In this document: positions 16,531-57,008 of the stretch, one piece after another
How positions within the stretch are numbered: the stretch's first letter is position 1
Layout: the number at the start of each line of letters is the position of its first letter
NCBI GenBank assembly: GCA_965219575.1
Contig: OZ244779.1
Coordinates: 1,580,769 to 1,644,768, forward strand
DNA length: 64,000 nucleotides
Direction: 5' to 3'
Source: Candidatus Oxydemutatoraceae bacterium
Lineage (GTDB): Bacteria > Pseudomonadota > Gammaproteobacteria > Poriferisulfidales > Oxydemutatoraceae
The notes under the pieces: model-generated
Told to the model about the DNA's origin: nothing
Database searches by the model: none
Seen by the model: the letters and a program-made list of their open reading frames with translations, nothing else
Translations under genes and position numbers: made by a program

Positions 16531-16555
16531 CCGATTGACCTACCGGCTCAATCGG
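16531..16555. repeat. Hairpin CCGATTGA-CCTACCGGC-TCAATCGG just past the stop of giant gene 1 (possible terminator or mRNA-stabilising hairpin)
   Basis: Perfect 8-bp stem 5 bp from the TAG; no U-tract. Other copies at 16446, 56818, 56978 (degenerate) and 6265. Confidence 0.7.
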
Positions 16556-16560
16556 TGGTT

Positions 16561-19500
16561 CTACTGGAGCGGACCTTCCAAAAAGACTTTGGCGCGGATG
16601 CGTATCACACCCCTTTCTATTATATTCGTTGCCGAGGCTCGCAACAGAGTCACAATATAGGTTCGGCTATCCCCGGACTGTGGTGTTACGACTATAGTAA
16701 TGTCTTTTTTCGTTCCGGGATTAACCGAAACCGTTAGGCTTGCCGATCGGCTGGCGCGACCTGAGTTTCTCGATCGGTCTCCGATCACCAGCGTAGTATT
16801 TTCAGCGAAAGCCATTGCGGTTATCGTCATATTTGACATATTATTAGGCAATTCCACACTGTAGTTGTTTTGTTGACTTGCCGAGTTCATGTTAAACATA
16901 AATTTCGGTTTCAATACGCCTTGAGATACGCGTAGCATACTCAACCTCGTGTCTCGGCTTTGCTCGCGGTCGATAGCCACCGTATAGGTTTTACTCGTTT
17001 GCCGGTCTTCGGCAAGCACTTTAATTGAAACTCTCTTAGTCTCGCCTTCGGCGTCAACGAAGGAAATAGCATCGCTTATATCGGCATCGGCACCGTCTAC
17101 CGCAACGGTAATCGTCGCACTGGAATGTTCCGTTTCCGTTTCCAGACCGACACTCGTTATCTTATCGCCGACTATCGGATTAGGAATCGTATAAACATAG
17201 TCGGCACTCGTCGCTAGATTGCCGAAGTCGGCAAGTTTATTTCCTCCCGACACGATACGCAAGGCACTCAAGTTGGCATTATCGCTCGCCTTGCGGGTCG
17301 CACGCACCACATAGTTACTCGTTGTCGCACCCGGTGCTACGAGTGCTATGGTAATGTCCTTGGTCTGATCCACATCGAAGCGAATTATGGCACTTCCGTT
17401 AGCGGCTTGTATCACCTCGGTTTCCGCATCGAATATCGTATATTCTACGATACCGTTATCCCCAGAGAACAGTGTCGGACTCACGACCAGATTCGCACTA
17501 TCATTTGCAATCGTCACCGTATAGTTGCGGGTAAAGGCATCAAAACGATAAGGATCATCGTCGCTAAGTCCGTCCAAACCTAGCGTCTGCAAAACCAGCG
17601 GACGAATGACGGTCACGGTATAGCTCTGCTCGGTATAACCGTCTTCGGTGCTATCGCCGCGTCTTACGACGAGGGTGATGCGGTTGGCACCTCGCTGCAA
17701 CGGAATAGCTCGAGAAATAGAAGCAAGATCTGCGCTTAAATCTACGGGATTATCATTCAAGATATATTCGGTGCCACCCAAAAGGATGCTCCGGATACTT
17801 ACACCGGCGGCGGTCGCCGCTGCCGACGCTATGATTTCGGTAGCCGTGCCGATCAGTTCGCCGCGATATTCGGTTTCGGTGTTGCCTTCCGGATTAAGTG
17901 CCACATCACTCATTCGAAGCATAAACCCTAAGGCACTTCGGGTCACCGATGCGGCTCGGGATATCACCACGGTATAAGTTGCGGTTGTTCGATCCTGTGC
18001 GGTTGCCGAGATAGTAATGTCTTCATGTTGTCCGGGATTTATTGCAATCGGCAAGGTCACCGAGTTACCCGAGCGAGAATTGCCTACTTCGCTAATTGTC
18101 AGTATTGTGTTTGCATTGGCGGCAGCTGCACCGAGGTTCACATTTGCGGCGTCGTTAGGCAACTCTACGCTATATTTTCTAATCTCTTGAGTTGCCGCCG
18201 AAGAATCGAAGCCGAATTGCGGTATTAACTCACTCGACGATACCGCCAACCTACTCAGCCGAGTATCTCGGCTCGCTGCCCGCACGATAGTCACCGTATA
18301 GGTTTTCCGGACGCTACGCCGTTGTGCGGTCACTACAATTCGGGCGCGCTTAGTCTCACCTTCGTCTAGGCGAATGTTCTCATTTATAGTATTGACACCC
18401 ATAACTCTCGGAGGGGTGTCGTCGTCTACCGTAAGACTTATCGTCGCATCGGGATGTTCGGCTTGCGCTTGCAGACTAACACTCGTTATCTTATCACCGA
18501 CGATCGGGTTGGGAATCGTATAGACATAGTTGGTACTTGTCGCTAGGCTGTCGAAGTCGGCAAGTGTATTTTCCCCCGATATAATACGCAAGGCACCCAA
18601 GTCGACATCGATATTTCCAAGGGTTATCAGCACGATATAGTCTTGGGTCGTCCGTCGATCTTGTGCGGTCACGACAATGGTAATCGTCGTCGTCCGACCC
18701 TCGGTCACTGCGATCAACGAACTCTGTCCGTTCTCGGCTACGACTTCGCCGCGATCGCTTCCCGGTGCAAAAACTTCTATCTTATCTACATAGGGTTGTG
18801 CAGTCGGTTTTACTCTAACACCGGTCACGATATCGGTGAAAGATGCCGGATATTCACCGCCATCGCTTAAGCTATCAAAAATCACCAACGGCTCAACCGC
18901 AACCGACGATTGCGGCAATAGTTCCAATGCCGACAAACGGGCGTCGGTGCTGGGTGATCGGTTCACCGTCAACGTGTAATCCGCGCTGTCGTCTTCGCGA
19001 CCCGATTGTGCGGTTATCTTAATTCGCAACTCCGTGCCGTCGCCGGGGTCGTCTAAGGTGATACTCGCTCGTGCCGCACCCTCTCCTTCGACCCGCCTAT
19101 TGCGCACATCGGTAATCACCACCGTTGCGAATTTATTGCCGGCGGTCACGGTTACGCTGCTACTCGTCGTTGCTTCGTCTAGGGTTGCGGTATAGGTTCC
19201 GTCGCCGTTATCTACTACCGATGTGCCGGCTACGGTAATATCCGCCAAGCTCGCATCGCGACTCGGATCACGACTTATCGTCAAGGTATAGCCTTGAGTC
19301 GTCTCACCGTCTTGCGCAGTCACTACGATGCGCAGGGTTCTGGAAGCACCGGTATCGGCAATGGTCACTTGTCTGCCGATCTCGTTGCGAATGGAATTCG
19401 TCTCTCCGTCCAAAGTGATTGCCACCGTCGCTTGCGAATGGGTCGTTGTCACGGTCACGGTCGTATTCGATGTGTTTTCGTCTAGGCTCATAGTATAAGT

Positions 19501-22500
19501 CCCGTCTCTACCCACCGCTATAGTATCGCCACCGACAATGACACTTGCCAAACTCGCATCCGCACTGCGCTCTCGAGTTATCACCAAGCTATAGGTCGCA
19601 GACGCAATCCCATCCTCCGCAATCACTTTGATCGGTATAGTCGGCTCCGGTGTATCCAATGCGGCTTTCAGCGGGATGAGCTTATCGGGCATAGATTCCG
19701 CCGCATCGCCGTCTATACTAACCGTCGCAGCCGAGTCTGCAGCCTGCGGCGATACTACGATTTGCGTTATGGTCTGGACTTCACGCCCGTCTATCCCGGT
19801 GATACGCGCCGAATAGGTTGCGCTCGTACCCTCGTCGGGTGATGTCAATGTAAGCAGACGCGTACGCGTATTGTCATCCAACGAAAGCGCAATACCCGCT
19901 AAGCCGGCATTGCTACGGTCGGCTCCGGCACGGGTCACGGCTATGGTATAGCGTCGGGTGGTGCTGTCGTCTTGGGAGCTGACCGTAATACGAATGAGTT
20001 TTTCTATTTCCGACACCGTCAAATCAAACATCCTTTCAATCGTGCCGGTTGCGGTCTTCTCTATACCGTCTATGACCACTGCGATGATTGCACGCGGATG
20101 GGCTTCGGCAACCACCCGAGTGTCGGTGGTGCCATTCGGAACCTCAAATTGATAGACTTGTGTTCTACTCGTGGGATCAAAGTCCGGCAACAGGTTTGCA
20201 TTATTTTCATCGAGCAACCACAAATCTCTCAAATCGGCATCCGAACTCCGAGCGCGGTTTATCGTCACGATATAAGTCTTGCTCGTCGCACCGTTCTCCG
20301 CGGTCACGCGGATCAGCAATTCTCTATTGTCGCCGGTCTCGGCGAAGGTGATATTCACCATCCCCTGTTGCCTTGCACTCACCAGCTCGGTATTGTTTTC
20401 GCTAATTGTCACCGTTGCGAATTGATCGCTCGCAACGGCGGTCACGGTCGCATGCATTACGCTCTCGCCTACGGTTGTGGTATACATCGGTGGGTCGCCT
20501 TGTGGCATCAAGCTACCCACCGGCGACACACTCAGCGATGCCAAGTTCGCATTCGATCCCAGTATAATCCTTGCCGTCAACCTATAATCTTCGGTTGTGC
20601 CGTTTTGTGCGGTCACGGTAATAGTAATCTCTCGCCGTGCCACCGCAATGTCGGCAAGACTCGTCGGAACACCGATCGGGATATCGGTTTTCGTTGCCGT
20701 CCGACCACCGACTGCATCCGCGCCATCATTAATACTAATCCTCACCATCGCACCCGGGTGTGCTGCCGTCGCCGATACCGAGAACGAAGTTACATTTCTG
20801 TCAATCTCCGCAGTATATTCGCTATCGCTTACCGAAACTGCGGTTGCCGTAGTCTCGCCGACACCGGGGATGAGGATTATCGGTGCACCACTTAAATCGT
20901 TATCGGAACTGAGCGCACGACCTATGTTGAGCCTATAACGGTTTATCGTTTTTCCATCGGATGCGGTCACTTTAACCTCAATCGTATTTCGACCGGCACC
21001 TAAGCGCAGGCTCGTATCGGGGCATAGCGAGTCGCTCTCGGCACCGGCAACTTTGCTAATCTCAACGGTCGCCTCTTCATCCTCTGCCTTTGCGGTCACC
21101 CGAATACAATCTATTGCGTTGTCAACGGGAGGAAGCGTATATTCCAGTGTGTCCGGCACAAAATCGCTCGGACTCGCGGATGAGGGCTCCTCTCCCGAAG
21201 AAGAAGACAGTGTATAGAGTATACTTCGCAACCGGGCATTGGTACTCGGCAATCGGTCGACAATCAGCGTGTAGGTTTGCGAAGTGACTCCGTCGTGGGC
21301 AATTATTTTCAATTCTATTTCGTTTTCGCCTAGGGCAAAAAGTGGTTCGCTTTCGGGATGATCTCCGGTAACCGAACCCGTCTCCAGTCCGCTCAAACTC
21401 AACGATATACCGTTCCATAGAATGGCGGTGATTTTGGTGTCCTGCGGTGTCACCCTCAAGCTGACGGTTCTTTGATCGTTGGCAACCTCGACGGTATAGT
21501 TCTGTGTCGTCGGGTTAAACACACTTAGCACATTGATATCGTCGTCGTTCAGCACTTGCAAGTCTTGCAATTCGGCATCGGTACTTCTGAGACGAGTAAT
21601 CGTAAGCGTGGTAGCTTGTTGTGTTCCCAATGCCGAAGTGGCGATCACCATCGTATTGTCGTCGTAGTTCAACGGCACCGATACGATTTTCTCTATCCTA
21701 TCGGCAAGCACTCGGGTATCGGTCGTAATCGGTGCAATGTCCGCTCTCAGTTCGGACACGACTTGCAGATCGGTTGCGAATGTCACCCTAACTTGCGATG
21801 TCTCGGTGGGAACGACTGCGGTATAAATGTGCTGCGTAGAAGCGAATGTCGGCACCAAGGTGACCGTAGTCGCCGGTGCATAAGTCAATACCAAGTCCTG
21901 CAAATCCAAGCTGTATTCACGCACAACGACGAGCGTATAAACGGTGTCGGTTTCACGCGGTGCCTTCACCCTGAGTATTATCGTGTTACTACTGATGTTC
22001 AACGGTGGACTATCAACCCGATTACCGTCGACCTCCACATTATCGACGAGAACCGTAGCCCCTGCTTGTCGCTCGAATTCTATAGCCTCGGAACCTCGCT
22101 CGTTGGCGACGATCGCAAAATATCGGGGCACTTCGGGACGGAATTTCGTAGTGAAGTCGGTTCCCACCAATCTTAGACTTCTAAACCGAGTACTGTATTT
22201 ACGCCAAACATTTACGCTATACACAACGACTTCTTGGTCTGCAAATGAGCCACTCGGAGCCGTCACCGTGAACGCAATGCCGTTTTCTCCCAAAGCCAAG
22301 CCACCGACCGTTGCTTGCGCAACCGGCAAGCCGGCTCGAGTCGAGGTCGTAATCTCACCGACCGTATTGCCGTCGGATGCGATAACAATATCCACCAACT
22401 CGTTGACGCTTGCAATCACCGTGATGGTGCTTATCGCATTCGGAATATCCGGTCGTTCACTCAGATCATCGCCCAAATCTCTGCGCTCGGTGCCGTCCTC

Positions 22501-25500
22501 GCCTTGCCATTCAATACGCCAGCCTCGTATCGCAACATCGTAGTCACGAAAGACCGTATAGGTTCTGGTGCTGGTGTCGTCTTCACCCTGCGATACGATA
22601 ATGACCTCGTTGTCGCCGTATTCCAAATCTAGGGTTGTTGCAACTTTACCGGTAAGCGGCACACCGTTCACCGAGATTGCGCCGCCGATTGCCGTCACAT
22701 CAAGACGCTCGACTTCGGTCGGCACGCGATAGTCTCGCGCTTCGAAGTCGAAGTCCGGCGATAAATCGTCGGCAGCCAATTCCACGAAGATAAAGCCTTC
22801 GGTATCGGCAACCGGTGCCTCTCTCAGCACCAATCCGATAGATGCCCGTTGCGGTGGAGATGCAACCGTCCGGCTATAGCCCTGTCCGTCTATGTAGCTC
22901 ACCACCACTCTGTAATGATCGGCAACCTCGCCGACGACGGTATAGTTCATACCATTCGCAGTATCGATATCCGTCCAGCTGTCTCCCGATCGTCGCTGCC
23001 ACCGGTAAGCGACAGCGCGAGGATCGCCGGCACCGTCGGGGTCTTCCGCCAGCTTGTCTTTGTCCAGCGTCGGTGCGGTATAAGTGAGACCTACCCGTGT
23101 CGGTGTCGTGATGCCGTCTATGATGCCGTTATCGTACTTTGCCACACTAAACGACCTTTCTTGAGTCACGGTTTCCCCGACGGTATCTTCAACTACCAAC
23201 GCTACATTGACCGTCTCGGCGGTTTGGTCGGCAGCGATGAAATCGTCGCGCAGATAGAACGACAGCGTAGCACGACCCGAACCACCCGAAACGCGACCGG
23301 AAAGCATCGTGCGATCTAAAAGCCGCACTTGCTTTTCATCCGCCGTCCATCGATAGCGCAGATCACCGCCGTCGGCATCCGAAAGCTCGCTACTCAGCGT
23401 AATGAAATGCCCCTCTCTGATCGGCACCGAAGTGATCAACGGCTCGCGGCGCTCATCTGCCGCACGCACCGCAATCGCACTTGCTTCGGGGAATGTATTG
23501 AAGGCAATGCGATATTCCACATCCAAATTCTCCTTGCCGCCGATCTCGTAAGGTTCGGATACCACGATGCGCACCCGCGTTGCGGTAGTGAAATCGCCGC
23601 CCACAGAATAATTCGCCGAACCAATCGACGGCGGTGCATCGTTTATCTTGATAACGCCGGCGGGATTGTATGCGTAGGCGACGATACGAATTTCGGCACT
23701 GCGATCCCACACCGATACGGTAATTTCGTCAACCGCCGCCCTATCAAAATCATCTTTGAATGTTGCCACCCTCGGCATCGACGATAATTCCGGCTGCGCT
23801 AGCGCACTGATTTGACCGATTTGTAAATCCTGCAAGCCCAAGCGTTGGCGCGGTAGCACGGCACCGCAATTCACCGACGGTGCGCTGCCGGCACAGGTGC
23901 CGTCGTTGTATTTGAGGACCGGGTATTGCTCGGTGGTGCCGAAATCCCAACGCTCAGTGTTCCAGTTGCGGTACGGGTGGGTATTCGTACTGGATCTTGA
24001 TGATTTCAGTATTTGAGAATTAAAGCCACGTACACCGCTATTGCTGCCGAGCAAACCTGCGGATTGACCACTGCGTTCAATATCCCAATAATTTCCCATG
24101 AGATTAAAACCTATATTCAACCTTATAAATCCTTTATCGTTCGGGTTGCCCGAAACGCGGGTGATTGAATAGTTATTGATAATTTGACCGAGGGCGGCAT
24201 AAACACCGATGAAGCCACTTTTGTCCGCCGGACCGGCAATCGAACCGGCTGCATAATTGTCCCTAACGATTGTCGAACGACCAACTTCGAAATGAGCTAA
24301 AAAGCCACCGACTCGATTGAAATCACTTTCGTTACCTCTTGCTATTACCGTAGCGAATGTGTAATTGTTAGCGATAACCTTGCTATCCGGTCTATTAATA
24401 ACATCATCGATAAGCTCTCCGATCAAACCACCGACACGGTCGTCGGCCGATACGCGCCCGGTTGCATGGCTATTGTCGATAGCCGTATTATTAACATCGC
24501 CTATCAAGCCACCGACAACCCTGTTTCCGTTGACATCACCGATGGCATAACTGTTGCTAATCGTTGCATTTCTGGCAAGACCCACCAAACCGCCGCTAAA
24601 GATTGATGCGCTATTGACATCACCTGCCGCATAACTGTTGCTAATCTCGCCCCCTAAATTGCCGACTAGGCCACCGGCTCTACTCCCCATACCTTGCACA
24701 TCGCCCGTTGCATAACTGTCGCGGATATTGCTAAACGACCGACCGACCAAGCCACCGGTATTGCCTTGCCTTGAATCATTGGTCACATCGCCCGTTGCAT
24801 AACTATTCGTAATCGTCGTGTTACTGAGGCCGAAGCCGACCAAGCCACCGACACCCGTACCTTCGGTAACGGTTATGCTACCACCACCCCTTCTAACGAC
24901 GGTGGCCGACGAAGCACTGTTTTCAATACGACCACCGCTTTCCAGCACACCGACCAACCCCCCGTTCGCTATGACATCTCTTTGCCCGCTCATAGTGATA
25001 TTCAGACTTATTGCCCCTGCCGTACGACTATTGCCGATGGTTGCATTGGAAAAACTGACTAAACCGCCGAGAACATTGGTTCCCGTCAGTGTGCAGTTTG
25101 CCGAACTATCGCTGATTTCGGTAGCGGCTCGGTTTGCTCTACCGATCAAACAACCGCCGTCGTAATAAGTGCTAACCGTGCCACTCAATACATGGCTATC
25201 GGTGATGCTACGACCGCTGAACGAACCGACCAACGCACCGACATTGTTGGATCCCGCTATGTCGACATCGGCCAAGCGCACGCCTCTAATCTCGGCATCG
25301 CCGCTTGCTGCCGCAAATAAGCCTAAATTGACTTGATCGGCTTGCGAAGTACCGGCGAAACTCACCGCTTGATTTATGCGTAGGTTGGATATCGTATAGC
25401 CGTTGCCTTCAAAAATAGCCGTGAAGCAGTCGCTGGTTGCATGGCTACAATCACCGATCTGATTTTGTTTGTTAACCACCGTCCCGATCGGATCCCAGTT

Positions 25501-28500
25501 GTCATAGCTATCCGGACCATTGAAACTTCGATAACTGGACGCGTCGTCAAAATCCAAATCTCTGACCAACTCGTAGCCGCTGCAGACATCGCCCGGACAG
25601 CCGCCGACCAATAACAAATTAATACCGGGATATTGAAGCCCGGTGCCATCGGGCTGATTGCGAATTGCGTCTAATTGCTCTATGAAAAAGATATCTATCA
25701 AGCCGTCTCGGTCATGATCTACGATACGGTCGTCGGATGCCAGTCTGCCATTAATGAACGAAACGATGGTATTGGAATACCCTTGGTTATCGGTATAAGT
25801 CGTTGTCAACCGATACGATGCAAATATATCTTCAACTCGATAATAGGCGCGATCGATGTTCGTCGGAGAACCGTTCACTTCCCATTGATAGCTTATATCG
25901 GTGAACGGTCCACCGTCGGCATCGTTGATTTCCGAGGCAAAAATATAATTTGCGTTAGCAACACCAAGGGGACCATCCACCCAACGCAACGCTGCCATGT
26001 CACCGTCGCGGTTGGTCTTGACCACATCGATGATGATATCCCGAGACGCAAATGCATCGGGATTATTCCTTTTGACGACTTCCAGCTTGATAACCGCTTG
26101 CCCACGGTCGGCTTCGGCAGCGAGTAGATCGTCGCGCACCGCCACCCTCGGCGTCCGCTTGATACTCTGCGATACCGGCAATAGTTCGGGGCCTCTCGTT
26201 TGCCTCCATCTATAATCCAATGCCGCATTGTCTACCGAGCGGCTTCGCGTCGCATCCAATATCAGGGTATCGCCTTCGTTCACGGTGATGATACTCTGCG
26301 CAGTCAACGCCACCGAAGCAGCGTCATTTCGTGCGTATGTGATTACCGGTTGCGGCGGTTTGCCGGAAACCGGCGGTGCCGAGCGCGGAGATACCGCCGT
26401 AGCTCTCGGCTGACCGCGTAGTAGTGCGCCACACATCGGCAACGAGGTGCTGTCGTCGAAGTCGCAAGCCGGATCGTCTCTATCGGCACCTTCGGTGTAT
26501 CTCAGTAGCGGGTATTGCATATCGGTGCCGAAATCCCAGTGGTCGGTATTCCAACCTCGGTATGTAATGCAACTGCGCGTCCTATTCCGGCTTGCTTCGC
26601 TGCGCCCGTCTTCGCCGCTCAAACAGGTTTGGGGTGTATTCGGCACCGACGGATTGGTTAGTGTATTATTCGATCTCCTGTTATTGACATCGGGCATCGA
26701 CACGGCGTGCGTGACATAGGTAGTTCCGGAAACGGTGACCGCACACCGATACGGCTCTCTGCGCCAATAGCTATTCGTAGGTGCCCTACTCGGCATGCTA
26801 CGGTTTAACAAGCCGGCAACGGTAACATTCACCGGGCTGCCGTTATAATTTGCCGTTATATTACCGGGACAAGATGCAAAGCTTTGCGTTTGTGATGCAC
26901 CGAGATCGCTAACCGAAGCGTTTGCCCCGAAGAGCGTCGGCACATAGGCCCTACCGCCGGCATAACTATTGGCAACGATGGATCTGCCGCCGATGTGCCT
27001 ACCGACTAAACCGCCGAGATACGGCGTGGCACATGAAACCGTTGCCGGTATTGCCACATTACTATCAGAATGCACATAACTATTTCTGATTTCGCCGATG
27101 CCGTCGGCTCTATCGGCAGCGGATAACTGAGACCCGACCAAACCACCGACGATACAAGTCCCCGATACTTCACCGGCCGAATAATAGCTGTTGTGAATTT
27201 TCCCGCCACTGCGATTCCTACCAACCAAGCCGCCTACGGTCACATTGCCGTTATTCGATATATTCCCGTCGGAATCCTGCACACCGACATTAATTCGTGC
27301 ACGACTGTTGACTATATAACCGGCGTTGACACCGACCAAGCCACCTGCCGAACCGCGATCGGTACGGATGACACGCGCCGATGTTTGTCCGGGCACAGTA
27401 CCGTACACATCACTATTGCGGATCACGCCGTCGCGCCGCAGTAGCCCGGTGATACCACCGACATTTTTAATCCCTGCCAAACCTTTGATGGCGGGAGAGT
27501 CCAGGACTAAGTTTTCAACCTTGCCGTTTGCACCGATCTCGGCAAACAAGCCGACATTCGCTTTGCTGCCGGCACTGCTACGGCTGATAGCCAGGCGGGC
27601 AATAGAATAACCGTTGCCGTTGAATATTGCATTGAACACGCCGCCTATCGGTTGCCAACCGTCGGCGGTGGTAGTGAATTCACCCTCGTCCACCGTCCAC
27701 GCATCATTCACCACACCCGAGCGATAGTCGCCGGCAGTGGTGAAGTTGAGATTCCCGGTCAACTCGTAGCCGATACAACCGGTGATCGGGCAACCGTGAG
27801 TAATCAATTCACCATCGGCACTTGCCCTATAGCCGCTACCGTCGAGCTGATAACGCACCGCATCCAGATCTTCTAAATGCCTAATCTCTATCAAACCGTC
27901 GCCGTCGTCATCTATATCGTCGGCGTTGGCAATCGAATCACCATCAATATCGGCATTATCCATAGCGACCGACGACCCGACGGTGACGCTATTGGATACG
28001 ATCGGCTCGCTCGTATAGCCCTGACCATCCGAATACAAACCGATAAAACGATATTGATACCCGCCATCGACCGTATCGCCCGCCGATAAATCGACATTCC
28101 TCCATGCATCGCCCGGAAAACGCCGCTGGAACTGCCTACTTAGATTGCGCACGGTACCGTCGATATCGTTAAGATTCTCGGTGACCGTAATTCTTCGGTT
28201 GGTGCCTATCGACAGTACGGGATTTCCGGTCACCGGGCCGTTATTCACTTTGTTGATACGCACCACGATCTCTCTGCTCAAGTAGACTTGCCGGATGCCG
28301 TTATCGGGGGTAATCGATACCGACAATTCAAACTCAAAATCGCCGTCATCGACATTCTCGGATAACAGGTCGGCTTGCGGTGCCAACTCTAGATTCAAGC
28401 TATCTGCATCGGCAATGTTCACCGCCGTGCCGCTAATCTGAGACCAGCTTAGATCCGAACTGCCGGCGTAGTCTCCGCCGATCGTGAACATGTCGCCCTC

Positions 28501-31500
28501 GTCGATGCCGATTGCGGGAACATCGTCCAGTCTTAGATTATCGCGGACTATATCAAAATAATATCTCGTCACCCGATTGCCGGCGCTCGCTACCAGCGTG
28601 ATTTCTTGTATATTAGAATTATCCAAAATGAGCGTGGCGTCGCTGCCGACAAGCGGACATAACACATCGCCACAATAAAGCGTGGTCTCCAAACCGGCAA
28701 CGGTCGATGTGGTGATGAATGTGATCGGCAACGGTAATCGGGTCGCGTCTACATAGAGCCGGTATCTGTTGCTATTTCCACTATATCTAAAATCGCCGGT
28801 GATACCGTTTATTCGGGCTATTGCGGCATTCGCCACCTCTACAATACCCACCAACGAACTATCCAATACCTGCATCGCAATGCGACCGTCAGCAGCTTTC
28901 AGTGTCGGGTATTGTTCGTCGGTGCCGAAATCCCAATCGTCGCTACTCCAATTCGCATAAATACCCATCGTTGGTGTCGTCCCCTGTAGCACTGCGGTGG
29001 TTTGACCACCGAATGGAGTGGTTTCACCGCCGGTTGTAGAAGCCGATTGTTGATCGTTGAGGATATTATCCCAATAGCTGTTGATAACGGAGACGGTGCC
29101 GGTGGTACCCCCGATCAGACCCAAAACACCCCCCGACTGGCGCGCTGCCGCATAGCTGTCGACGATATCGGCTTGCTCCATAAAGCCGACCAAACCACCG
29201 AACCCTTGAACGAACCCTGCAATCTCGAATTCTTGATCGATACACTCTAGATCGAGTATCTTGTTCATATCCACCCTTGCATAGCTGTTCTCGATGGTGC
29301 CGATATTCTCTGCGCTATCGCGATTTGCCGAGATATGCTCGCCGACCAAGCCACCGAGACGACAATGCCCGCTTATCGCACCGGTCGTATAGCTGTTTTT
29401 AATCTTCGCACCACGCTCGTTCCTGCCGACCAAGCCGCCTACGATGTCCCCTAAAGCATCACCGTCAGGAGAAAACGAATGGACATAGACCTGTGCAAAG
29501 CTGTGGCTAATCTCACCACCGCTATTGACACCGACCAGACCACCGAAACGACTTTGTTTAAGCGCACGCCGACTGTAGTTGGAACCTACCAGTGCGGTGA
29601 CATCGCTTACACCGACATCGTATATGCGACCACGGTTCTCGCCTGCCAAGCTCCCTTGCTTCTCCGCTCTCCTACTACTAAGGTCACGCCCGATAACATC
29701 ATAAATCCCGACATTCCGCAAGCGGAGTGCCTTAACTTCGGCATTCCGACCTAGGGTATGGAATAATCCGATTGCATCTTTGGTTTCCGTGCCGCGCAAA
29801 CTCAAATTGCGAATGTGATATCCGCTACCGTCGAACACGGCATCAAACGAGTTATCGTTATCTCCTATAGGATCCCAGTTATCCGCCCATTCGGTATTGA
29901 CCACACCCGAGCGATAGCTTGCGGCATCGCCGAAGTCCAAATCTCGCGTCAACTCGTAGCCTCTGCAACCGACGGTCGGAGTGGTCGGACACCCTTCGAC
30001 GATAGGCAATAATCCACCGTCGGGTAGCGCATAGGTGTAGGTACTGCCGTCCAGACTATAGCGTATCGCATACAGGTCGTCCACTGTCGTGATTTCTATC
30101 AAACCGTCGCCGTCGGCATCGGCTAACACTCTATCGGCATCAAAGCCGAAATAATCTATCTCTAAAATATATTCAACGGTCGCGCCGGCACTTTCAACCG
30201 ACACGATAATCGCATCGCCGACGCCGGGGTCGGGTACGATCGGGTCGCTGACGGCACCGTCGACAACACCGAATTCATCTCCGCCGTAAGCGATAGTAAT
30301 CATCGCATCGTCGCTCGCAGCATTCGGTATCAGACGCAACGAGCCGGTCACTCCGATATACGCACCGATACGATAACGCAGTCTAGGAGTTGCAAATTGT
30401 GGCATCAACTGCATTATGCTTCCTAGAACTTGTAGGTCGCTCAACCCGTAGCTCCGTACACTACTGCAGGTCGGCTGCCCGCTACCACCGCACGCCGGGT
30501 TGTCGCCATCGTCTCCGCGTCCATAGCGCAGTTGCGGATAGTGTTCGGGAGTACCGAAATCCCATAGGTTTGTATCCCAATTCGTATAGATGCCGCTCGC
30601 AGCGGTCGGTGTTAGCAATGCGGCCGTCGTTTGACTGCTACCGATGCCGTTATCCGCTATGCCGGCGGTCTCTATGTTCCAGTAGCTATCACTCACGCCG
30701 CCTAAACTGTCACCGATCAAGCCACCGGACCGAGGCACATCGCTCACTCGTCCGATAGCATAACTATTGACGATGCTACTTGTTCTTCGGTCGCCGACAT
30801 TGCCGTTGACCCCGACCAAACCGCCGACCCGACCTTGTGCAAAAACACCACCGCTCGCATAGGTATCCGACACCATACCGGTATTCAAACCTGCCAAACC
30901 GCCGACGCGGTTGTTGCCCGATACCTCACCCAACGCATAGCTCGTCAAAACCGCCGCGCCGACCTCGTTGCGACCGACCAAACCACCGACCGCACCGCTG
31001 CCCGATACCGCACCGCTCGCATAGCTGTTGACGATACGCCCGTCGCTGTCGGAACCGATACCATTATTAGTCCCGACCAAACCACCGACATTGTTCTCAC
31101 CCGATACGCTACCGATTGCATAACCGTTATAAACTCTGCCGGTGTTATAACCGACCAAACCGCCGACATGATAACTTTCGCTATCGTCGCTACCCGATCC
31201 TACAACCATAACTTCGGCAAAACTACGGTCAACCAAACCGTCGTTCTCACCGACCAAACCACCGACAAAAGCTCTGCCCGTGACTTCACCTACCGCACCG
31301 CTCGCGACGATAGAACCCCTCAAGTTGCGACCGACCATACCACCGACCGCGCTTTCTCCGCCGACCTCACCGTTCACCGACACATTGTCGACGCGACCGT
31401 TGCTATTGGCGGCCAATCCACCGACACCGTCCCGGCCGGTGACCGACACACCCGATAAAACGAGGTTGCGGATCTCGGCATCGGGATGCAGATGCGCAAA

Positions 31501-34500
31501 CAACCCGACATTATCCGTGTTCGGTGCGGCGATGCGCAAGCCCGAAATCGTATAGCCCGATGACCGATTGCCTTCGAATATGCCGGCAAAACATCCGTTC
31601 TCGGGATTATCGCAATCGAGCGTTCCGATGGGCTCCCAATCGGTAGCGGAAAGTTCTATGCTCGCTGCCAATTCGTAGCCGATACAGCCGGTTGTAGGCG
31701 CACATCCGATGGTGATTCTCCGATCGGCAGCCGATGCCCTATAGCCGCTACCGTCCGGTTGATAGCGCACCGCATTCAATTCGGTGCGGTTGTGTATTTC
31801 TATCAAACCGTCGTCGTCCACATCCACATCGCCTATGCGCAAATACGGATGGCGCGACGCAGCAAAGGTGTAGACGATATCGCTGCTTCCGAGATTGATC
31901 TCGATACTACCCGAATCGGGAACCGGAATACGCGACGATGCGCTACCGCTTCGGACGACTTCGGCAACACTGCCGTCTACCGATAATTGATATGCCGCCC
32001 CTACATAAGTCGGCATGAGTTGGAATCCGCTCTCGCCGGCTTTCAATATCAAGCGATAGTTGTATATGAGTGGATTAAACGACGGAATAAGCTCTAAAAC
32101 TTCGCTCGAGAATACCAAATCGGTCAAGCCGATATACTGACCGGGTAGCAACTTGCCACACACCGGCAACCGCGACGAGGTATCCGACGCGACACGGCAG
32201 GTCGGCGCACTACCGATGAAAAGTGTATCGGTGGCAGTCGTGTATTTGAGCCTCGGGTATTGCATATTATTGCCCAAATCCCATATCGCAACATTCCAGT
32301 TGGTGTAAATCTCGGTTGTCGTAGATTGAAGTTCAACGGTGGTTTGGCTGCTACCGTCGCGCCCATCGACAACACCGCTGGTATTTATATCCCAGTAGCT
32401 GTCGTTGACCGCAACCGGCACATTGGCGGCATTGAAGACCAAACCGCCGCTTCGAGCCGAGCGATTCGCACCGATGGCATAACTGTTGTCAATCCGCACG
32501 CCGGTGCCTAGCGAACCGACCAACCCCCCGCCTTCGCTCGCATCGATCATAGCGGTTGCATAACTGTTTGAGATCGTCGCATTCTCAACCGCACCGACCA
32601 AGCCGCCGCCGGACGCGGAACGCGCAGATACCGTACCGGACGCACGACTCTTGCCGATCGCGCCGCGCAACAATCTACCGATCAAGCCACCGCCGATGGC
32701 ATCGACTTCAACCGAAACACTGCTATCGCTGTTGACGATAGTGCCGCGGTAAACGCCGATTAAACCGCCACCGTTGTTGTCGGCACGCACCGTGCCGGTC
32801 GCACGGCTATTGATGATCTCACTGTTGTTTCGGTCTTCGCCGACCAAGATGCCGACATCGTTGTTGCCGATAACCTCGGCAGCCGACACATTAATTCCTC
32901 TGATCATAGCAGCGGATATCGCACCGAACAAACCGACATCGTCGCTATTACGGCGACGGATCATCAAACCCGATATCGTATGGCCGTCGGCAATAAACTG
33001 AGCGGTGAACGGGTGCTCGGCATCGCCGATCGGCTGCCAACCCTTGCCGTCGGTCCACAGTGGCATCGTACGCTGCGCATCCACATAGCTGTCGACCGAG
33101 TTGAAGTCCAGATCTCTGACCAGTTCGTAGCCGAAGCAACCGCTGTCGGGGCAACCGCCGTCTATCATAATCGTGGTGGTCGTCCCTAATCGATAACTGA
33201 AACCACGACCGTCTAAACCGTGTCGTATCGTGTCCAACTGCTCCAAAAACGCAATTTCTATCAACCCGTCGCCGTCGGCATCGAGGGTCAAGTCGCGGTC
33301 GGCATCGACAACGATGTTGTTGTCGGCATCCACGGTGAGGATACCTCGATAGCTTGCGAAAGGCAGACGTTCTACGACGATGCGATATTCAAATCGGTAG
33401 CGTTGCCCGCCGCGCACCGTCACCGTGATTTCGGTGGCAGTGTCGCCCAGCACCACCTCCGCAATACCGCTGTCTTGCAGTGTTATCGGCTGCACACCGT
33501 TATCGGCAGCGATTACAATATCCACGACGGCACCCGGCAACGGATCGCTCACCATCGTATTCAAGCGCACTCGCTCGGTGTCGGAATACACGATCAACCG
33601 ATAGTCGCTTCTATCTCTTATAAAGTTCGGCGACAACCGCGAACCGTCCAATGCCGAAAGCTGTATGTCTATGTTGTCTTGATAATCGGTCGACCTGAAA
33701 TTGATCGTGTAGCTACGGGTCGTGGCATCGGTTGCCGAGCGCACCGCCAAGCGCAGCGCATCGATATCGGTTCTGTTTAGGTCGATCTCGGCACTGCGGG
33801 TGTTGTCGGCAATAATTTGTTCGCTGTCTCCGGCTATCAGGGTGACGGTGTCGGCGCGATAATAGGCGGTCGGTGTGGTGTGGAATACGGTGATTGCCCC
33901 GTTAGTTATCAAGTTGTACGACTCCACTTCGGGGCTGAACTCCGGCACCAACCGTACACCGGCGGGTAATTCCAGTGCAATCAAGCCACGGCGGTTTTGA
34001 TACGGCACCAATGCGCCACAATACGGTTGGTCCGAGCGATCCCTAAGCAGACGGTCGCGACAGACAAGCGCACGGTCGGTTTCCGACAACCTTGCCGAAA
34101 CCAGCGTATCGCAACTTCGTAGCTGTGCCACAGTCGGCTGTGTGCACAAACCGGCACTCCCGTCTTGATACAGTGCCGCAGGGTATTGGTCGGCATTGCC
34201 GAAATGCCACAGTGCCGAATCCCAACGATAGTAGACGGTATCGGTGCTATTATTCTGTGCCACACCGGATTGCAATTCTACCGTCGTTTCGCTCGTACCA
34301 CCGGCAGCGGTCGCTCCGGGTGCGGCGGTATCCCGATCCCAATAACTGTCTAAAACTTGAGAGTCACCCAGTGCATTGCGAAATAAAGGTCCGCCGGTTG
34401 CATAGCTATTAGTGACGATACCCTCGTTTGTATCGATTAGACCGGCAATAACTCCGGTGTTGTCGGAAATGATAGGCTGCGCATAACTATTTTCTATATT

Positions 34501-37500
34501 GCCGGAAATATTATTTTCTAACGACAAACCCGCCGCAGCAGTATTCGAACCTCTACTTCTAATAGCGATCGTTGCAAAACTACCGAGAATAGCACCGTCG
34601 TTGGTATGTACCAAACCTGCAGAAGCATCTTGATTATCTATCGTGCCACCCACTGCACCGCTGTTGATAATGCGACCGAGATTTTGATAAACCAAAGCAC
34701 CGACACTCCCGTTCTGCAAAAGAATATCGGCATTTTCAACGCGACTATTGAAAATAGTGCCGTAGTTATATACCGCCAAAGCGGCGATTACACCGGTTTC
34801 TCTACTACTACGGATAGAGACATCTTTGAGGTGGATATCTTCCAGCCTTGCATTCTCATCCAAATAAGCAAACATGGCTATCTCGTCAAAAGCGGGGTCG
34901 TGTAGGGTCAGGTTGGATATCGCATAGCCGTTGCCTTTGAAATGCGCATCGAAGCGCGCGTTATCGCGACCGATGGGGTGCCAATCTATCCCTGCCAAGT
35001 CTATATCGGCTGTCAACTCATAACCGCGACAGCCGACACGGCAATAAAACCGATCACTATTACTCGTGCCACCTGCCCTATAAAAACGACCGTCCAAACT
35101 ATGACGCATCGCATTCAACTGTTCGGGGGTGGCAACATCTATCAAACCATCGTTGTCGCCGTCTATTGCGGCAAGGTCTATCGGCTCATTCAAACGCGAG
35201 ACACTAAAGCGGTAGCGATACGATGTGCGGTCTTCACCTTCTTCTACGACTACATCCAATAGCGTATCACCGACGGTGTCCAATGCAATCAGTGGTGTCG
35301 CAACGCCGCTCTTTACTCTGAGCACTTCGGCATCGGTGGTCGTTTTATAGACCACAATATCGGCATTCGGAGCAAACGCCTCGGCAACAAAGCGTAGACC
35401 TTGCCGGTCGGCACCGACCACAATCTCGTAATCGTTGAATGTCGCAAAATCAAAAGGTCGGCTGATACCGGCATTATCGAGTAACTCGAAACGCGCCATC
35501 AAGCTCCCCTGATACGGGAGTATCTTGCCGCACAGCGGGTTGTCGTGTCGTTCGAGTTGACATTCCTCGGCGTTGTACTTGATCACCGGAGATTGATCGG
35601 CACCACCGAAATCCCAATCGTCGGTATTCCAAGCGGCAAAAATGCCGGTCATCGTCGTCGCCCGCAACTCGGCACCGCTTCTCGCTCGACTTGCCGGCAC
35701 ATCAACCCCGGCAATGTTGCGATCAAAATAACTGTTTGTTATAACTCCGAGACTATTACTCAGGTTTCCTTGTGGCACGCCCGCTCTGGTCATCAGCATA
35801 GAGGCATAGCTATTGCCGATGTTCAAACTTCGTGTAGGGTTCGCTCCCAACATCGCTGTATTTGTCAATTCACTTTCGATCAGTGTTTCGATTCTTCCGA
35901 TCGCACGGCTGTTTTTGATCGACTCACTACCGATAGTAGCACCGTCAGCCAGCACTAATCCATGGGTGAAAGAGGGACTCTCTCTAAAACGATTTAATGA
36001 CCGCAAAATGCCGATAAAATAGCTATTACTTAACGAAGACTCGGCAAAATCGGTTGCAAAAGGAGCCACATTATGTCCGCTTAAATCTCCGATGACATAA
36101 CTATTGCGAATCGTGCTTCTCGTTAAGGATGCTGCTATTGCCACTGCTATTTCTGAATTTATATCCACATTGACTAAACCCAAGCCGTCTATATCGGAGT
36201 CCGAAACCATAGCGAAAAGTGCGATGGGATCGGGGGAATCCAATACGCTTAGATTGGATATTGCATAGCCGTTGCCTTTGAATACGGCATTGGATAAGTC
36301 AACGAATTCCCAGCTTCGAGTCCAGATAGGCCTATTTGTGGCCGGCTCTCGGTAGCTGGCAGGGTCGTTGAAATCCAAGTCTCGCATCAATTCGTAGCCA
36401 CGGCATACGCCCCTCGGACAACCCGAGGTATTGAGTTCACCCTCCCGTGCCGTTCTATAACCTATCTCTTGTTGGAAATTAAAATCCACCATTGCCACAT
36501 CTTCCAGATAATGAAGGTCTACCAAACCATCGTGGTCCGCATCTATCGGTGTCTCAAACCGGTAATCCAAATAGAGCGTATAGCGCACCGGGCGAGTGCC
36601 GTGAACCGCAATAACGACTTCGGTGGTGCCGTCGGCAGTCAGTGCAATCTCGCCACTGGGATTGCCGCCGGCAATCTCGGTGTTCTCGGGTGTTCGGACA
36701 CCGCCGATATAGACGCTATAGGTGGCACCTGCTTCGCGTGTCGTGGCAACCAGTTGCACACGCGGCGCATCGTTGAGCACCGTGGTGTAATAAGCACCGC
36801 CGATATCCAGTATTGCTTCGTCGAAGGGTGCGATGAGTTGTGCGTAACGAGTGGTGAGTGCGCTCAAGCCGTAGCGTGTTTCAGGTGCAATCAAGGTGCC
36901 GCACAGCGGGCGTTGCGATACGGTATCTTCGGCGTTGCGACACGCCGGGCGACCCAACACATCGGTTGCCGTGGTATATCTGAGAGTCGGGTATTGCATC
37001 GCAGTGCCGAAATCCCAATTTTCCTCGCGCCATAAGTAATAGACACCGGTCGGCGTGGTGCTCGGCTCGGTCGGTGCGCGCAGTTGTCGCATCGTTCTGC
37101 CTTGGAATATTTGCGGCGAAGTCACTAAATTTTGTTCAACGGTATCTGAATTATAATAATTCGCTCCGGTAATATTAATATTTGCTAGATTCCCTTGAGA
37201 ACCGGTATAAGGTAGGCTCGACGGTCCGATTGAATAATTGGCATTTAGCAATAAATTTTTATCAAGGAATAACGCACCAAAAAATCCCCCGTTGGCAATG
37301 GCATTTATTATATTGTTAAATGGCCCACCACTCACATCGACCCACGCATAGTTGTTGCCGATGTTAGATGCGCCTCCTGCACTACCGACAAAGCCTCCGA
37401 TGTTATCCGTGTTTGTACCAATTCCTGTAACCGAACCGACCGCAAAACTGTTCAATATCTTGCAACCGTTGCATCTGCCGAGCATGCCACCGGCATTTAT

Positions 37501-40500
37501 TCCGGTTGCCGACAACCGAATACCGCTACGGCTATTGACGATAACGCCGGTGCCGGCAGCGACCCCGACGATGCCGCCGACATCACCGACACCGGATACC
37601 GTTCCGGTCGCATAACTGTTGACAATTTTACCGCGAACGGTGCCGGCTATACCACCGATCTGCGAACCGGCTGCTATCCTAAAATTCGGTAGACCCAGGT
37701 TGCGTACGACACCGCTACTGTCGATCACACCGAATAAGCCTTGATTATTTTGACCGCTTCGGTTGATCTGTAGACGCGCGATTGCGTAGCCGTTGCCGTT
37801 GAAGGTGCCGGTGAACGGGGTTGTCATGTTGCCTATCGGTAGCCAACCGGTATCGGTGGCGAAGTCTGCCACGACCCAATCTTGGTTTATTTCACCCGAG
37901 AGGTAGCTGTACGGGTCGTTGAAATCGAGGTCGCGCATCAATTCGTATCGACCCGCTAGAGTGGAGGTGCTGGCAGCGATGGCATGAAAGTGCTCCAGAT
38001 AATAGATTTCGGTGAACCCGTTTCTGTCGCGATCCGCAAGCATAGGATCGTTTTGGTAGCGTATATAAAGCGGATAGTATGCCGGCGGTTTGCCTTCTAT
38101 TTCCAGTATAATGTGGTTGATGCCGTCGTCTAAAAAGATCGGGTTGCTCGTGCCACCACCGATAATCGTCTGAAAGGGGTCGCGTTTGACGAAATCAAGG
38201 TGAATGTTGATCTTTGTATTATCGTCTTGGGCAGTCGCTACGATGCGGATCGGGTTGCGGTAGACTTCACCGAAATAGTCGGCGGAACCCTCGACAAAAG
38301 ACGGATTCAATATTCCCGATGCCAAACGCAAATCTTGCAAGCCGTTGCGGATTTGGGAGGCAATCAAATCACCGCACACCGGCAATCGCGACACCGCATT
38401 GCGGTCTCGGCGGCACGCCGGGTTGCCGAATATATCCGGTTCGGCGGTGTACTTGAGTATCGGATACTCATCGGTGTCACCGAAATCCCAATCGTCGGCA
38501 TCCCAGTTGCTATAGATGCCGGTCGGACTGGTCGGCATTTGCAACTGCACCGTCGTTCGACCGGTGCCGCCGGCACTTGTATCCAGCCCGGCGGTTTCGC
38601 TGTTCCAGTAGCTCGCATCGGTATTGGTTCCGACCCTGTTATTGGCGGCAACCAGACCACCGAGGGTGCCGGAACCCGTGACACTCGATAGCGTATAGCT
38701 ATTACGAGTCCCCGTCTCAATCGCCGGAACTCCAAAAATAAAACCGACCAAACCACCGCTGTTATTTGCATCGGCATGAACCGATCCCGTCGCATAACCA
38801 TTGACGACCAAACCGTTTACGAGAATATCCCCTATCAATCCACCGACATTGTCGTCGGCTCGGATATTCACGCCGGCATAACTATTGTAAATTTCCGTAC
38901 TAAAAGCATTTATGTCTCTTAAGCTACGACCGACAACCCCCCCTGCATAACGAATGTTGCCGACAATACTGCCGTAAGCGCGGCTGTTAATAATCATACC
39001 ATTGGAGGCAAACCCGACTAATCCGCCGTAGTTGTTCGCTCTACTAGCGGGGAGTGCTTCTATATGAATCGCTGCATAGCTATTGAGGATTTTGGCATTG
39101 TTCGACGGATTGACTATACCGACTAATCCGCCGATATTGTTGCCCGTTGCGGTTATCTCGCCGATCGCATAACTGCCGATAATCTCCCCTAATGAAATAC
39201 CTGCCACTGCGCCGGTCGTGCCATCGGTATCTATTTTTACACTCAACAGACCGAGGTCGCGTACGACACCGCTATTTCCGATTACACCGAATAAACCTTG
39301 ATTATTTCCGCTATCTCGGTTGATTTGTAGATTGGATATCGTATAGCCGTTGCCGTCGAAAGTGCCGGAGAATCGGTTAGTATTATTGCCTATAGGTTGC
39401 CAGCCGAAATCGTTGCCGTCGTTAAAATCGTCCACCGTCCAGTTGCGATTGATACGACCCGAGCGGTAGCTGGTCGGGTCGTTAAAATCCAGATTACGCA
39501 TCAACTTATAATGACCGCTCGAGTTATTGCGTGTTTGATCGACGCCCTCTAAATCGTGTATTTCGGTAGATTCGTTATAGCGTATATAAAGCGGATAGTA
39601 AACCGTCGGGTTGCTTTTTATTTCCAGTACGATACGGTTGAAACCCTCGGCTAGGGTGATCGAACTGCTGGTCGTACCGCTGATAACGGTCTGGTCGGGA
39701 TGGCTTTTACCTTTGACAGTGCCGAAATAGATATTGATCGTTGTATTATCCTCTTTTGCAGTCGGCACGATACGAATAGGATTCGGGTTGCTACGCCTCG
39801 GGTCGGTGGCAACGACGCGACCGGAATAATTGCCGTTCAGACTTCTATGGGTGTCGCCGAAGGGCGGATATAATTCGTCGCCGTCGGTTAATGTTAAATC
39901 TTCGAGACCGTTGCGGATTTGGGGTGCGATTACATCGCCGCAGTCGGGCAAACCGTTGCCGTCGCAAGTCCGCATCCCGTCGGCAACGGGATTGGGGGCG
40001 TATTTGAGTATCGGGTATTGCATGTTATTGCCGAAATCCCAGTTGTCCTCGCTCCAGTTATGATAAATCTCGGTTGAATTCGTTCCCGGCGCAGTCGCCG
40101 ATTGCAGGTCTCGGGTACTCCTACCGCTTGCGTTTAGCCTCGAATCGTCGGGACGAGGCTGTCCTTCGGCGGTATCGCTGTTCCAATAATTCGGTGCAAT
40201 TACCGAAGGCATATTAACACCGGATAATATATAGTAAAAACTTCCGTCGGTTCGCCCGATCGAATAGTTGGCGGTTAAGTTTATATTACTGTTGAGACCG
40301 AGCACTCCGACAAATCCACCGTTAGCGTATCCCAAGGGGTTAAGTGCTTGCCTTATGTTGCTTTGTGCATAGTTGTCGGCAATGTCGAATGTGCTTTGCG
40401 CTCTACCGACCAAGCCGCCGGGTGGTAGAACATTACTGCCGGTATTGACGATCGGACCGATCGCAAAGCTATTTTGTATGCTACAGCCGTTGCAGTTGCC

Positions 40501-56728: not shown

Positions 56729-57008
56729 GGGCTGTTGAAAAGGTGCGGGCATTGCAAAAATCCAACCGCCTGCGCCGTGAATATTTACAAATCACCGTAG
56801 GGGCGGACATCATAATTGCCGATTGACCTACCGGCTCAATCGGTGGTTATCGCATTTTGTAATGTATGCGTTACTTACTTGTCAAGGGTCTGCACAACGT
56901 CACGCCACTTGCCCAACTGCAACCGCTTGCGCCGTGAATTTATAATAACCACCAAGCCGTAGGGGCAGTATAAAGCCGCCGATTGACCTACCGGCTCAAG
57001 TGGTGGTT
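56729..57008. repeat. Intergenic mosaic of the same repeat blocks found at 16180-16560
   Basis: GTAGGGGCGGACATCATAAT (56797), hairpins (56818, 56978), GCATTTTGTAATGTATGCG.TACTTACTTGT...TGCACAACGTCACGC (56852-56905, matching 16182-16235), CAACTGCAACCGCTTGCGCCGTGAAT (56914, matching 16260), GTAGGGGCAGTATAAAGCCGC (56959, reverse complement of 16471-16491). Confidence 0.85.

Follow-up and report, generated by a model that had tools for sequence, protein, structure and literature searches.

A 64,000-nucleotide stretch of the genome of Candidatus Oxydemutatoraceae bacterium (contig OZ244779.1, positions 1,580,769 to 1,644,768; the window, below) carries one giant gene and the 3' part of a second, and the products of both end in the same 14 residues. 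This peptide is a tag that would make an addition to the known class of C-terminal sorting tags. It occupied a strictly C-terminal position behind unrelated sequences, was spread over one bacterial family in genome-specific variants, and was swapped with other C-terminal modules in a relative that lacks it. It is probably a family-specific, ultrashort C-terminal sorting or anchoring tag of Sec-exported surface proteins, read by one co-evolving receptor.

The two giant genes were arranged head-to-tail on the minus strand of a genome made of one contig (2,369,097 bp, 47% G+C). The features concerned are listed below in window positions.

16561..56631, minus strand: giant 1 gene, an open reading frame (ORF) of 13,356 aa with a signal peptide, GLUG repeats, Peptidase_M26_N-like stretches, at least 12 cadherin-like beta-sandwich domains and the tag last (Pfam)
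16564..16605, minus strand: giant 1 tag, 14 codons for IRIRAKVFLEGPLQ (translation)
16561..16563, minus strand: giant 1 TAG stop, directly behind the tag
16639..17271, minus strand: final two cadherin-like beta-sandwich domains of giant 1, complete ahead of the tag (AlphaFold2 model and PF12733)
56557..56631, minus strand: predicted Sec signal peptide of giant 1, MKLRNNFFWVIILSSVLPTGEVSAQ (heuristic rule, no trained predictor)
56400-56556: N-terminal DxDxDG module of giant 1
57009..64000, minus strand: giant 2 gene, 3' part, continuing past the window edge
57012..57053, minus strand: giant 2 tag, 14 codons, same peptide as in giant 1 (translation)
57009..57011, minus strand: giant 2 TAG stop
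16531..16560, unstranded: palindromic repeat resembling repetitive extragenic palindromes (REP), abutting the giant 1 stop, outside the tag
56979..57008, unstranded: REP-like palindromic repeat abutting the giant 2 stop, outside the tag

The full length of giant 2 in the genome was 16,068 aa, and 14 cadherin-like domains were found within its window part. Like giant 1, it displayed GLUG repeats and Peptidase_M26_N-like stretches, and in both proteins the cadherin-like domains lay toward the C-terminus (Pfam).

Both giants translate to ...SATNIIERG[V/A]IRIRAKVFLEGPLQ-stop. An earlier note on this DNA had reported that they share a terminal motif and that its synonymous codon differences suggest selection on the protein; both statements held. 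The final 14 residues were all the same, and five of the 14 codons differed, every difference being synonymous (ATC/ATT, CGC/CGT, GAA/GAG, CCG/CCT and CAG/CAA). The codon spread among 41 canonical tails of the genome agreed with this: Leu at position -6 was encoded by five codons from both codon families, Val at -8 by four and Pro by three, and the tails stopped at TAG (22), TAA (15) or TGA (4). Five residues, F, L, E, G and the L before the last one, were invariant across these tails, and the last residue was Q in 40/41. The tag is under protein-level selection. Its consensus, 12-14 residues long, reads hydrophobic-R-hydrophobic-R-x-[KR]-V-F-L-E-G-[PA]-L-x-COOH, with basic and hydrophobic residues alternating from -14 to -8.

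The earlier note had allowed for the motif being confined to these two paralogs. A six-frame scan of the genome for the core [VIL][FY][LP]EG, at most 8 residues from the stop of stop-to-stop ORFs of at least 60 aa, showed instead that 51 ORFs carry it terminally, with precisely three residues after the Gly in 45 of them. The core occurred internally 11 times, and only three of these copies had the full tag context; a reversed-peptide control gave one terminal and six internal occurrences. The terminal excess greatly surpasses what chance would give. Summed, the tagged ORFs came to 159,301 aa (20.2% of the genome). At the small end were Ig-like proteins of about 180 aa, an S8 protease lay in between, and ten ORFs exceeded 5,000 aa. 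What preceded the tag was unrelated from one protein to another: cadherin-like domains, a WDFG..LPTL motif, the small Ig-like proteins or the S8 protease. A tag variant, ...IHIRVFPEGLLR, was found on tandem giants of about 5,800 aa; five such giants lie outside the window (genome positions 1,232,414-1,331,804), ending in ...IHIRVFPEGLLR/K/L, and one of them has VLPEG.

For the three copies with full tag context, either stop-loss fusion or a function at an internal site may be the explanation. In g1410 (L078:9500-13609, minus strand), a protein of 1,370 aa with HYR and two FGE-sulfatase domains encoded between two tagged genes, the copy stood directly behind the signal peptide and ahead of a Gly-rich linker. 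In two LRR+fn3 proteins that are nearly identical (1,752 and 1,777 aa; L088 and L089), the internal tag lay at residue ~287.

The tag is restricted to the family and present family-wide. At the DNA level, the exact KVFLEGPLQ-stop pattern was recorded 32 times in this genome and 11, 9 and 6 times in three genomes of the same genus; it was absent from the rest of the 41 relatives searched, and the reversed pattern gave 0 throughout. When a looser DNA pattern was run against one genome per species for 185,579 species, 37 loci appeared: 33 in three Candidatus Porisulfidus sp. records, three in Candidatus Oxydemutatoraceae bacterium and one in a Bacteroidales metagenome-assembled genome, where a supporting ORF was looked for and not found. 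The earlier note had proposed a profile scan of the tails. An 18-column profile built from 23 tails matched 13 of the 18 other genomes of the family, none of 34 genomes from three sister families of the order and none of 399 class-level genomes outside the family. In three genomes of genus g5 a diverged tag, R.RV[YLF]LGGA.R-stop, occurred 9, 14 and 4 times (reversed control 0). In this variant (seen in G008 and G015), Gly stands in place of Glu, and Tyr or Leu often in place of Phe; the tail profile nearly missed it. Overall, every one of the six genera and 16 of the 18 other family genomes had the tag family, the genomes without it being G005 and G011. All 20 matches sampled from other genera were terminal with three residues after the Gly. 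Among 1.84 billion representative proteins there were 80 matches at E<=1e-3, of which 76 were tag-terminated and 11 came from this genome. A homology search with the 40-aa tail region returned only the query itself, a short motif being unable to reach significance in such a search.

Endings were uniform within genomes and differed between them. PLQ closed 33 of the 51 tagged ORFs of this genome, PLR was found in 13/13 tails of G006 and in the single tail read from G002, ALE in 4/4 for G017 and G018, and a GGAVR-like ending in the sixth genus; the final residue was R, E or N in other genomes. Since synonymous sites vary, the uniformity within a genome does not reflect recent copying. It is the pattern expected from co-evolution with one reader.

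A natural replacement was encountered in tag-free G005. This genome encodes many GLUG giants, with open frames of up to 17,496 aa and 30-46% identity to a tagged protein of the present genome; in G011, the other tag-free genome, the GLUG query gave no match. Twenty regions at the expected ends of giant genes of G005 were sampled (loci L221-L228 and L234-L238). Thirteen ended in a dockerin-like module of ~70 aa that contains two calcium loops of DxDxNG type and has a basic tail, ...ENKGRRRTFSVH. A different tail (...SSDFDRV..QLRRPSG..ICRSSGR) was common to three others, and two ended in a Gly-rich segment, a hydrophobic helix and RRR, one of these ends following a 'choice-of-anchor U' match below threshold. 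A single region had none of these ends and one reached no stop. C-terminal modules are thus interchangeable on homologous passengers. This matches the logic of the curated 'choice-of-anchor' families and speaks for a docking or anchoring role of the tag. It suggests that the tag and the dockerin-like module do equivalent work, namely docking of the C-terminal end to a partner. Dockerins themselves are folded calcium-binding domains of ~60 residues, whereas the tag has no calcium-binding loop. A cohesin-like partner was not found, no search aimed at one having been made.

Co-occurrence with Sec signal peptides, another check suggested in the earlier note, was found in 39 of the 47 tagged ORFs of at least 150 aa, by a crude rule of our own rather than a trained predictor. 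Four further tagged ORFs had a signal peptide visible by eye, and three began within a conserved N-terminal module and appeared truncated. This module, located behind the signal peptide in 23 of the 51 tagged proteins, has the calcium-loop-like pattern DxDxDG[LIV][IVT][DE] (e.g. DIDKDNDGLIDICDLEGLNAIRYQ).

At the other end of the chain, the earlier note had envisaged that the tail might belong to the fold of the last domain. For the C-terminal 250 residues of giant 1, an AlphaFold2 model (12-row alignment, mean predicted local distance difference test, pLDDT, of 78) displayed two cadherin-like sandwiches, with pLDDT blocks mostly of 80-94 and a final strand that stopped at residue 225. From residue 230 onwards the tail was predicted at pLDDT 41-56, without secondary structure. 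In this model the tag is therefore a free tail outside the last folded domain, the sandwiches finishing before it. Alignments showed the cadherin-like domain closing with its usual ...TYT[IV]TV.R strand, followed by 2-10 linker residues and then the tag. A model of a 179-aa tagged protein had a mean pLDDT of 51, too low to be informative.

The tail corresponded to none of the known signals considered, as the earlier note had maintained from its features. No Pfam or NCBIfam model matched the tails, even when pieces of 30-50 residues were scanned at E<=10; in the last 400 aa of the giants only cadherin-like domains were recognised, and a literature search with the motif strings gave no matching paper. 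Tails of the sortase type (LPXTG, PEP-CTERM, GlyGly-CTERM and MYXO-CTERM) were rejected since the tag has neither a hydrophobic helix nor a basic tail, its Gly being followed by only three residues, and since NCBIfam gave no match. Genuine tails with a transmembrane helix and RRR, of different appearance, were found in g1812 and in two G005 proteins. Like the tag, such tripartite signals end many unrelated exported proteins per genome, are lineage-restricted and can be swapped on homologous passengers, but the tag lacks their hydrophobic helix, basic tail, Cys or Gly-Gly and consists of 14 residues with a polar end. GlyGly-CTERM proteins are described as surface proteins linked to type II secretion systems (T2SS). 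No sortase-like enzyme was identified among the scanned proteins. One 1,484-aa protein without Pfam match (L162:11390-15841, minus strand) ends in a hydrophobic helix and RRRR, i.e. a tripartite-type end, so that the genome also holds at least one sortase-type signal; the gene following it (L162:15878-16744, minus strand) encodes an exported 289-aa protein of no assigned family.

The C-terminal domain (CTD) of type IX secretion system (T9SS) substrates is a folded beta-sandwich of ~70-100 residues. The T9SS of Bacteroidota resembles the present case in that a signal peptide and a C-terminal signal occur on many surface proteins, giant adhesins included. Yet the tag is no T9SS CTD, for no folded C-terminal domain is present: TIGR04183 (type A), TIGR04131 (type B) and PF18962 had no match in the last 400 aa, and the 14-aa tail was unstructured in the model. 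Moreover, no barrel of SprA size was seen among the 335 proteins scanned (described below). Substrates of RTX-type type I secretion were rejected because signal peptides are present and RTX families were absent from the Pfam scans. Type V secretion was likewise discarded, as no barrel domain was found in the last 400 aa, TpsB (PF03865) had no match in the genome and BamA was the only Omp85 protein. The tail is not the beta-signal of outer-membrane proteins (OMPs) either, since that signal has an aromatic end (F, W or Y) and the last residue of the tag is polar. Curated parallels in kind were NF053834 (ultrashort_CTERM) and NF050076 (sort_motif_YLP), putative sorting motifs of ~10 residues that also end secreted proteins; their sequences differ from the tag, and they gave only chance-level matches (E 0.6-1), none at the ends of tagged genes.

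On the reading of a sorting or anchoring signal, the tag hangs free behind the last folded domain and has to end exactly three residues after the invariant Gly. A single strand formed by it can be amphipathic: one face would carry I, I, A, V and L, the opposite face R, R, K, F and E. After exit from the Sec channel, one genome-encoded putative receptor would bind this strand and the free chain end close to it; strand addition in a groove with a closed end is the probable mode. The adhesin would thereby have its C-terminal end docked to the cell envelope, from where it might be passed to an outer-membrane export step. We infer the docking or sorting function, the mode of strand addition and the existence of a single receptor. 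PDZ ligands, the C-terminal strand of pilus subunits bound by their chaperones and the TonB box are all short strands near a chain end that are read by strand addition, and recognition of this kind near a free end would explain the fixed distance of the tag to the end of the chain. The tag differs from them in its terminal residue, which is polar and varies between genomes.

Several observations weigh against this reading. Neither a receptor nor a processing enzyme was found, each candidate tested being either present in tag-free G005 and G011 or missing from tag-rich genomes. Neighbours of tagged genes were housekeeping genes, a type III secretion system (T3SS) cluster or genes for proteins without signal peptides, with no recurrent family, and for exports above 10,000 aa no known outer-membrane route was recognised in the genome, which has no TpsB and, among the 335 proteins scanned, no large barrel of a new type. 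The three internal copies (g1114, g1517 and g1410) indicate that the motif can persist away from the chain end. Because the tag-bearing genomes form one clade, the distribution amounts to a single evolutionary event. Finally, the module that replaces the tag in G005 matched Dockerin_1 (PF00404) only below threshold (5 of 11 scanned, 17-22 bits against a cut-off of 22.9).

The search for reading machinery compared 335 proteins with Pfam: those encoded beside tagged genes, those whose ends resemble signal peptides or OMP ends, and the members of two secretion clusters. Co-variation was then judged with G005 and G011 as negatives, a gene being called present or absent according to whether it was found with the query used. 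No partner gene was visible in the window, as the earlier note had stated: its other genes are housekeeping (folC-like, accD, trpA/B/F, alaS, guaA/B and xseA), plus an ATPase with AAA_14 and DUF4143 domains. The further proposal of that note, a dedicated export or anchor component such as an outer-membrane partner receiving the strand, gained no support from the candidates tested, none of which co-varied with the tag.

The envelope inventory comprised a complete T2SS (GspA-D and GspF-N, with a T2SSE-family ATPase; one operon half lies beside a tagged gene), a T3SS and a type IVb-pilus-like cluster, as well as four secretins and a single TolC. Its enzymes included two PDZ proteases, one CtpA-like (S41+PDZ) and one DegP-like (Trypsin_2+PDZ), together with an M14 carboxypeptidase and two L,D-transpeptidases. 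An operon of MotA-like, TolR-like, 580-aa and membrane-anchored FGE-sulfatase-fold proteins (L087:9755-15111, minus strand) recalls, if loosely and in our own estimation, the PorK/L/M core of the T9SS.

As possible partners, the following were rejected. An extra Omp85 protein was not encountered, each of 21 genomes giving exactly one match (BamA). The 580-aa protein of the motor operon was found in 18/18 family genomes, tag-free ones included; the operon was also recorded in 1 of 11 genomes of a sister family. The type IVb-like secretin g1095, encoded between tagged giants, was present in G005 and G011 and absent from tag-bearing G006, G009, G010, G013 and G016, and the pair g1229 and g1230 was present in G005, G011 and G008 and absent from G006 and G010. 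Porin-like g0484 was found in 5/5 genomes tested. Processing by a CaaX-type (Rce1-like) CPBP protease was also considered, as G-[PA]-L-x formally resembles aaX, but the CPBP gene does not track the tag. The only CPBP protein of the genome, g1321, is order-wide (homologues in 32/34 sister-family genomes), was not found in eight family genomes, seven of them tag-bearing, and is stop-interrupted in tag-bearing G001.

A wider claim can be ventured tentatively, and is rather doubtful at present: the tag may define a new surface-display route of Gammaproteobacteria, in which an outer-membrane or periplasmic receptor would capture the free-ended strand and then thread and tether Sec-exported adhesins of up to ~16,000 residues, its pocket drifting between genera (PLQ, PLR, ALE, GGAVR). 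Were this true, one fifth of the genome would depend on it. Earlier C-terminal sorting tags led to envelope machines, namely sortases, exosortases, rhombosortase and the T9SS. The present tag stands out as unusually short and without membrane segment, carried by ~50 proteins of uncultured sulfur-oxidising sponge symbionts, adhesins of 13,000-16,000 residues without recognisable export route among them. With it comes a simple sequence rule by which the surface proteome of an entire family of symbionts can be listed, while its genome-specific variants and the natural dockerin-like replacement constitute built-in controls for a receptor hunt. A receptor, if found, would show how giant adhesins, which are thought to mediate contact with the host, are displayed.

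The failure of any candidate to co-vary with the tag would be expected if no receptor existed and the cationic amphipathic strand (R-I-R-A-K) simply stuck the C-terminus to the cell's own lipopolysaccharide or outer-membrane surface. The basic/hydrophobic alternation at -14 to -8 fits such an anchor, as alternating motifs of this type bind lipid A (anti-endotoxin peptides; our literature search gave only unrelated papers). This is unlikely, though, for a charge pattern alone leaves the invariance of V-F-L-E-G, the fixed three-residue end and the genome-uniform endings unexplained, and the tag contains a conserved Glu, some genomes even ending in Glu.

The complete T2SS, with one operon half adjoining a tagged gene, raises the alternative of a T2SS secretion signal whose free C-terminal peptide would be read by the PDZ-like domain of GspC. 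GspJ occurred in 18/18 family genomes and in 0/34 sister-family genomes, which is the same family boundary as that of the tag; T2SS and tag share one clade, however, so that this match counts as one event. Residues 192-294 of GspC aligned with a region of Dickeya OutC (6hcg_e, E=0.0068) that probably corresponds to its PDZ domain. The usual terminal residue of a PDZ ligand is hydrophobic, unlike that of the tags (Q, R, E or N). The T2SS exports folded proteins, and folded cargo of 13,000-16,000 aa would be unprecedented to our knowledge. GspJ and GspC were found in all family genomes, and the T2SS together with a GspC having the PDZ region is also encoded by tag-free G005 and G011, which makes this explanation quite unlikely. 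When the GspC alignment was compared with the last residue of the tag, 8 of 333 columns passed; position 282 was K in PLQ genomes, D/E in two PLR genomes and D in one PLQ genome, a signal too weak to be used. According to one study (PMC12369372), the PDZ domain of Vibrio cholerae EpsC was needed for one substrate only, VesB.

That the tail was free in the monomer model would also suit a structural or regulatory element without address, acting in strand exchange between proteins (a mesh), as an edge cap against aggregation or in turnover by a tail-specific protease. The N-terminal DxDxDG module could dock the tail of another protein, three proteins carry tag-like copies internally or right behind the signal peptide, and both the CtpA-like and the DegP-like PDZ proteases are available. 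Against such roles, an edge cap needs no single invariant sequence across unrelated folds, small proteins without the N-terminal module are tagged as well, and the G005 swap to a dockerin-like module or to a transmembrane helix with RRR points to docking or anchoring. We therefore regard this explanation as improbable.

An artefact of DNA, by which a mobile repeat carries the tail or a REP cuts off the first strand of a longer domain and supplies the TAG, as the earlier note had considered, is highly improbable: REP cores within 8 nt of the stop are indeed more frequent in tagged genes (8/51, both window giants being REP-abutted) than in all genes of at least 150 aa (29/1445), but 43 of the 51 tagged genes have no such neighbour, so that the repeat makes neither tag nor stop, all three stop codons are used, synonymous sites vary, downstream frames of tagged genes had nothing in common when compared, and the terminal position was kept in five other genera and in 76/80 library proteins. 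The approximately eightfold enrichment of REP-like palindromes at tagged stops may reflect preferred insertion there or 3' ends that paralogs have in common.

Some neighbours of tagged genes are recorded here as side observations. The AAA_14 and DUF4143 ATPase gene of the window (14891-16132, plus strand) lies just downstream of giant 1; it has ~10 paralogs in the genome, several of which adjoin tagged genes. The type IVb-pilus-like cluster (L167), composed of a lipoprotein secretin, an ATPase, a platform protein and two pilins, is located just upstream of the five tandem giants and downstream of a tagged giant of 15,535 aa. A T3SS cluster (YscJ, K, L, N, O and HpaP-like; L059:8482-16739, plus strand) lies beside three tagged paralogs. 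Proteins without signal peptides are encoded beside other tagged genes, i.e. g0156, g1407 and g1408 (L058 and L078) and the Pro-rich g1582 and g1583 (L083); these five might be T3SS effectors.

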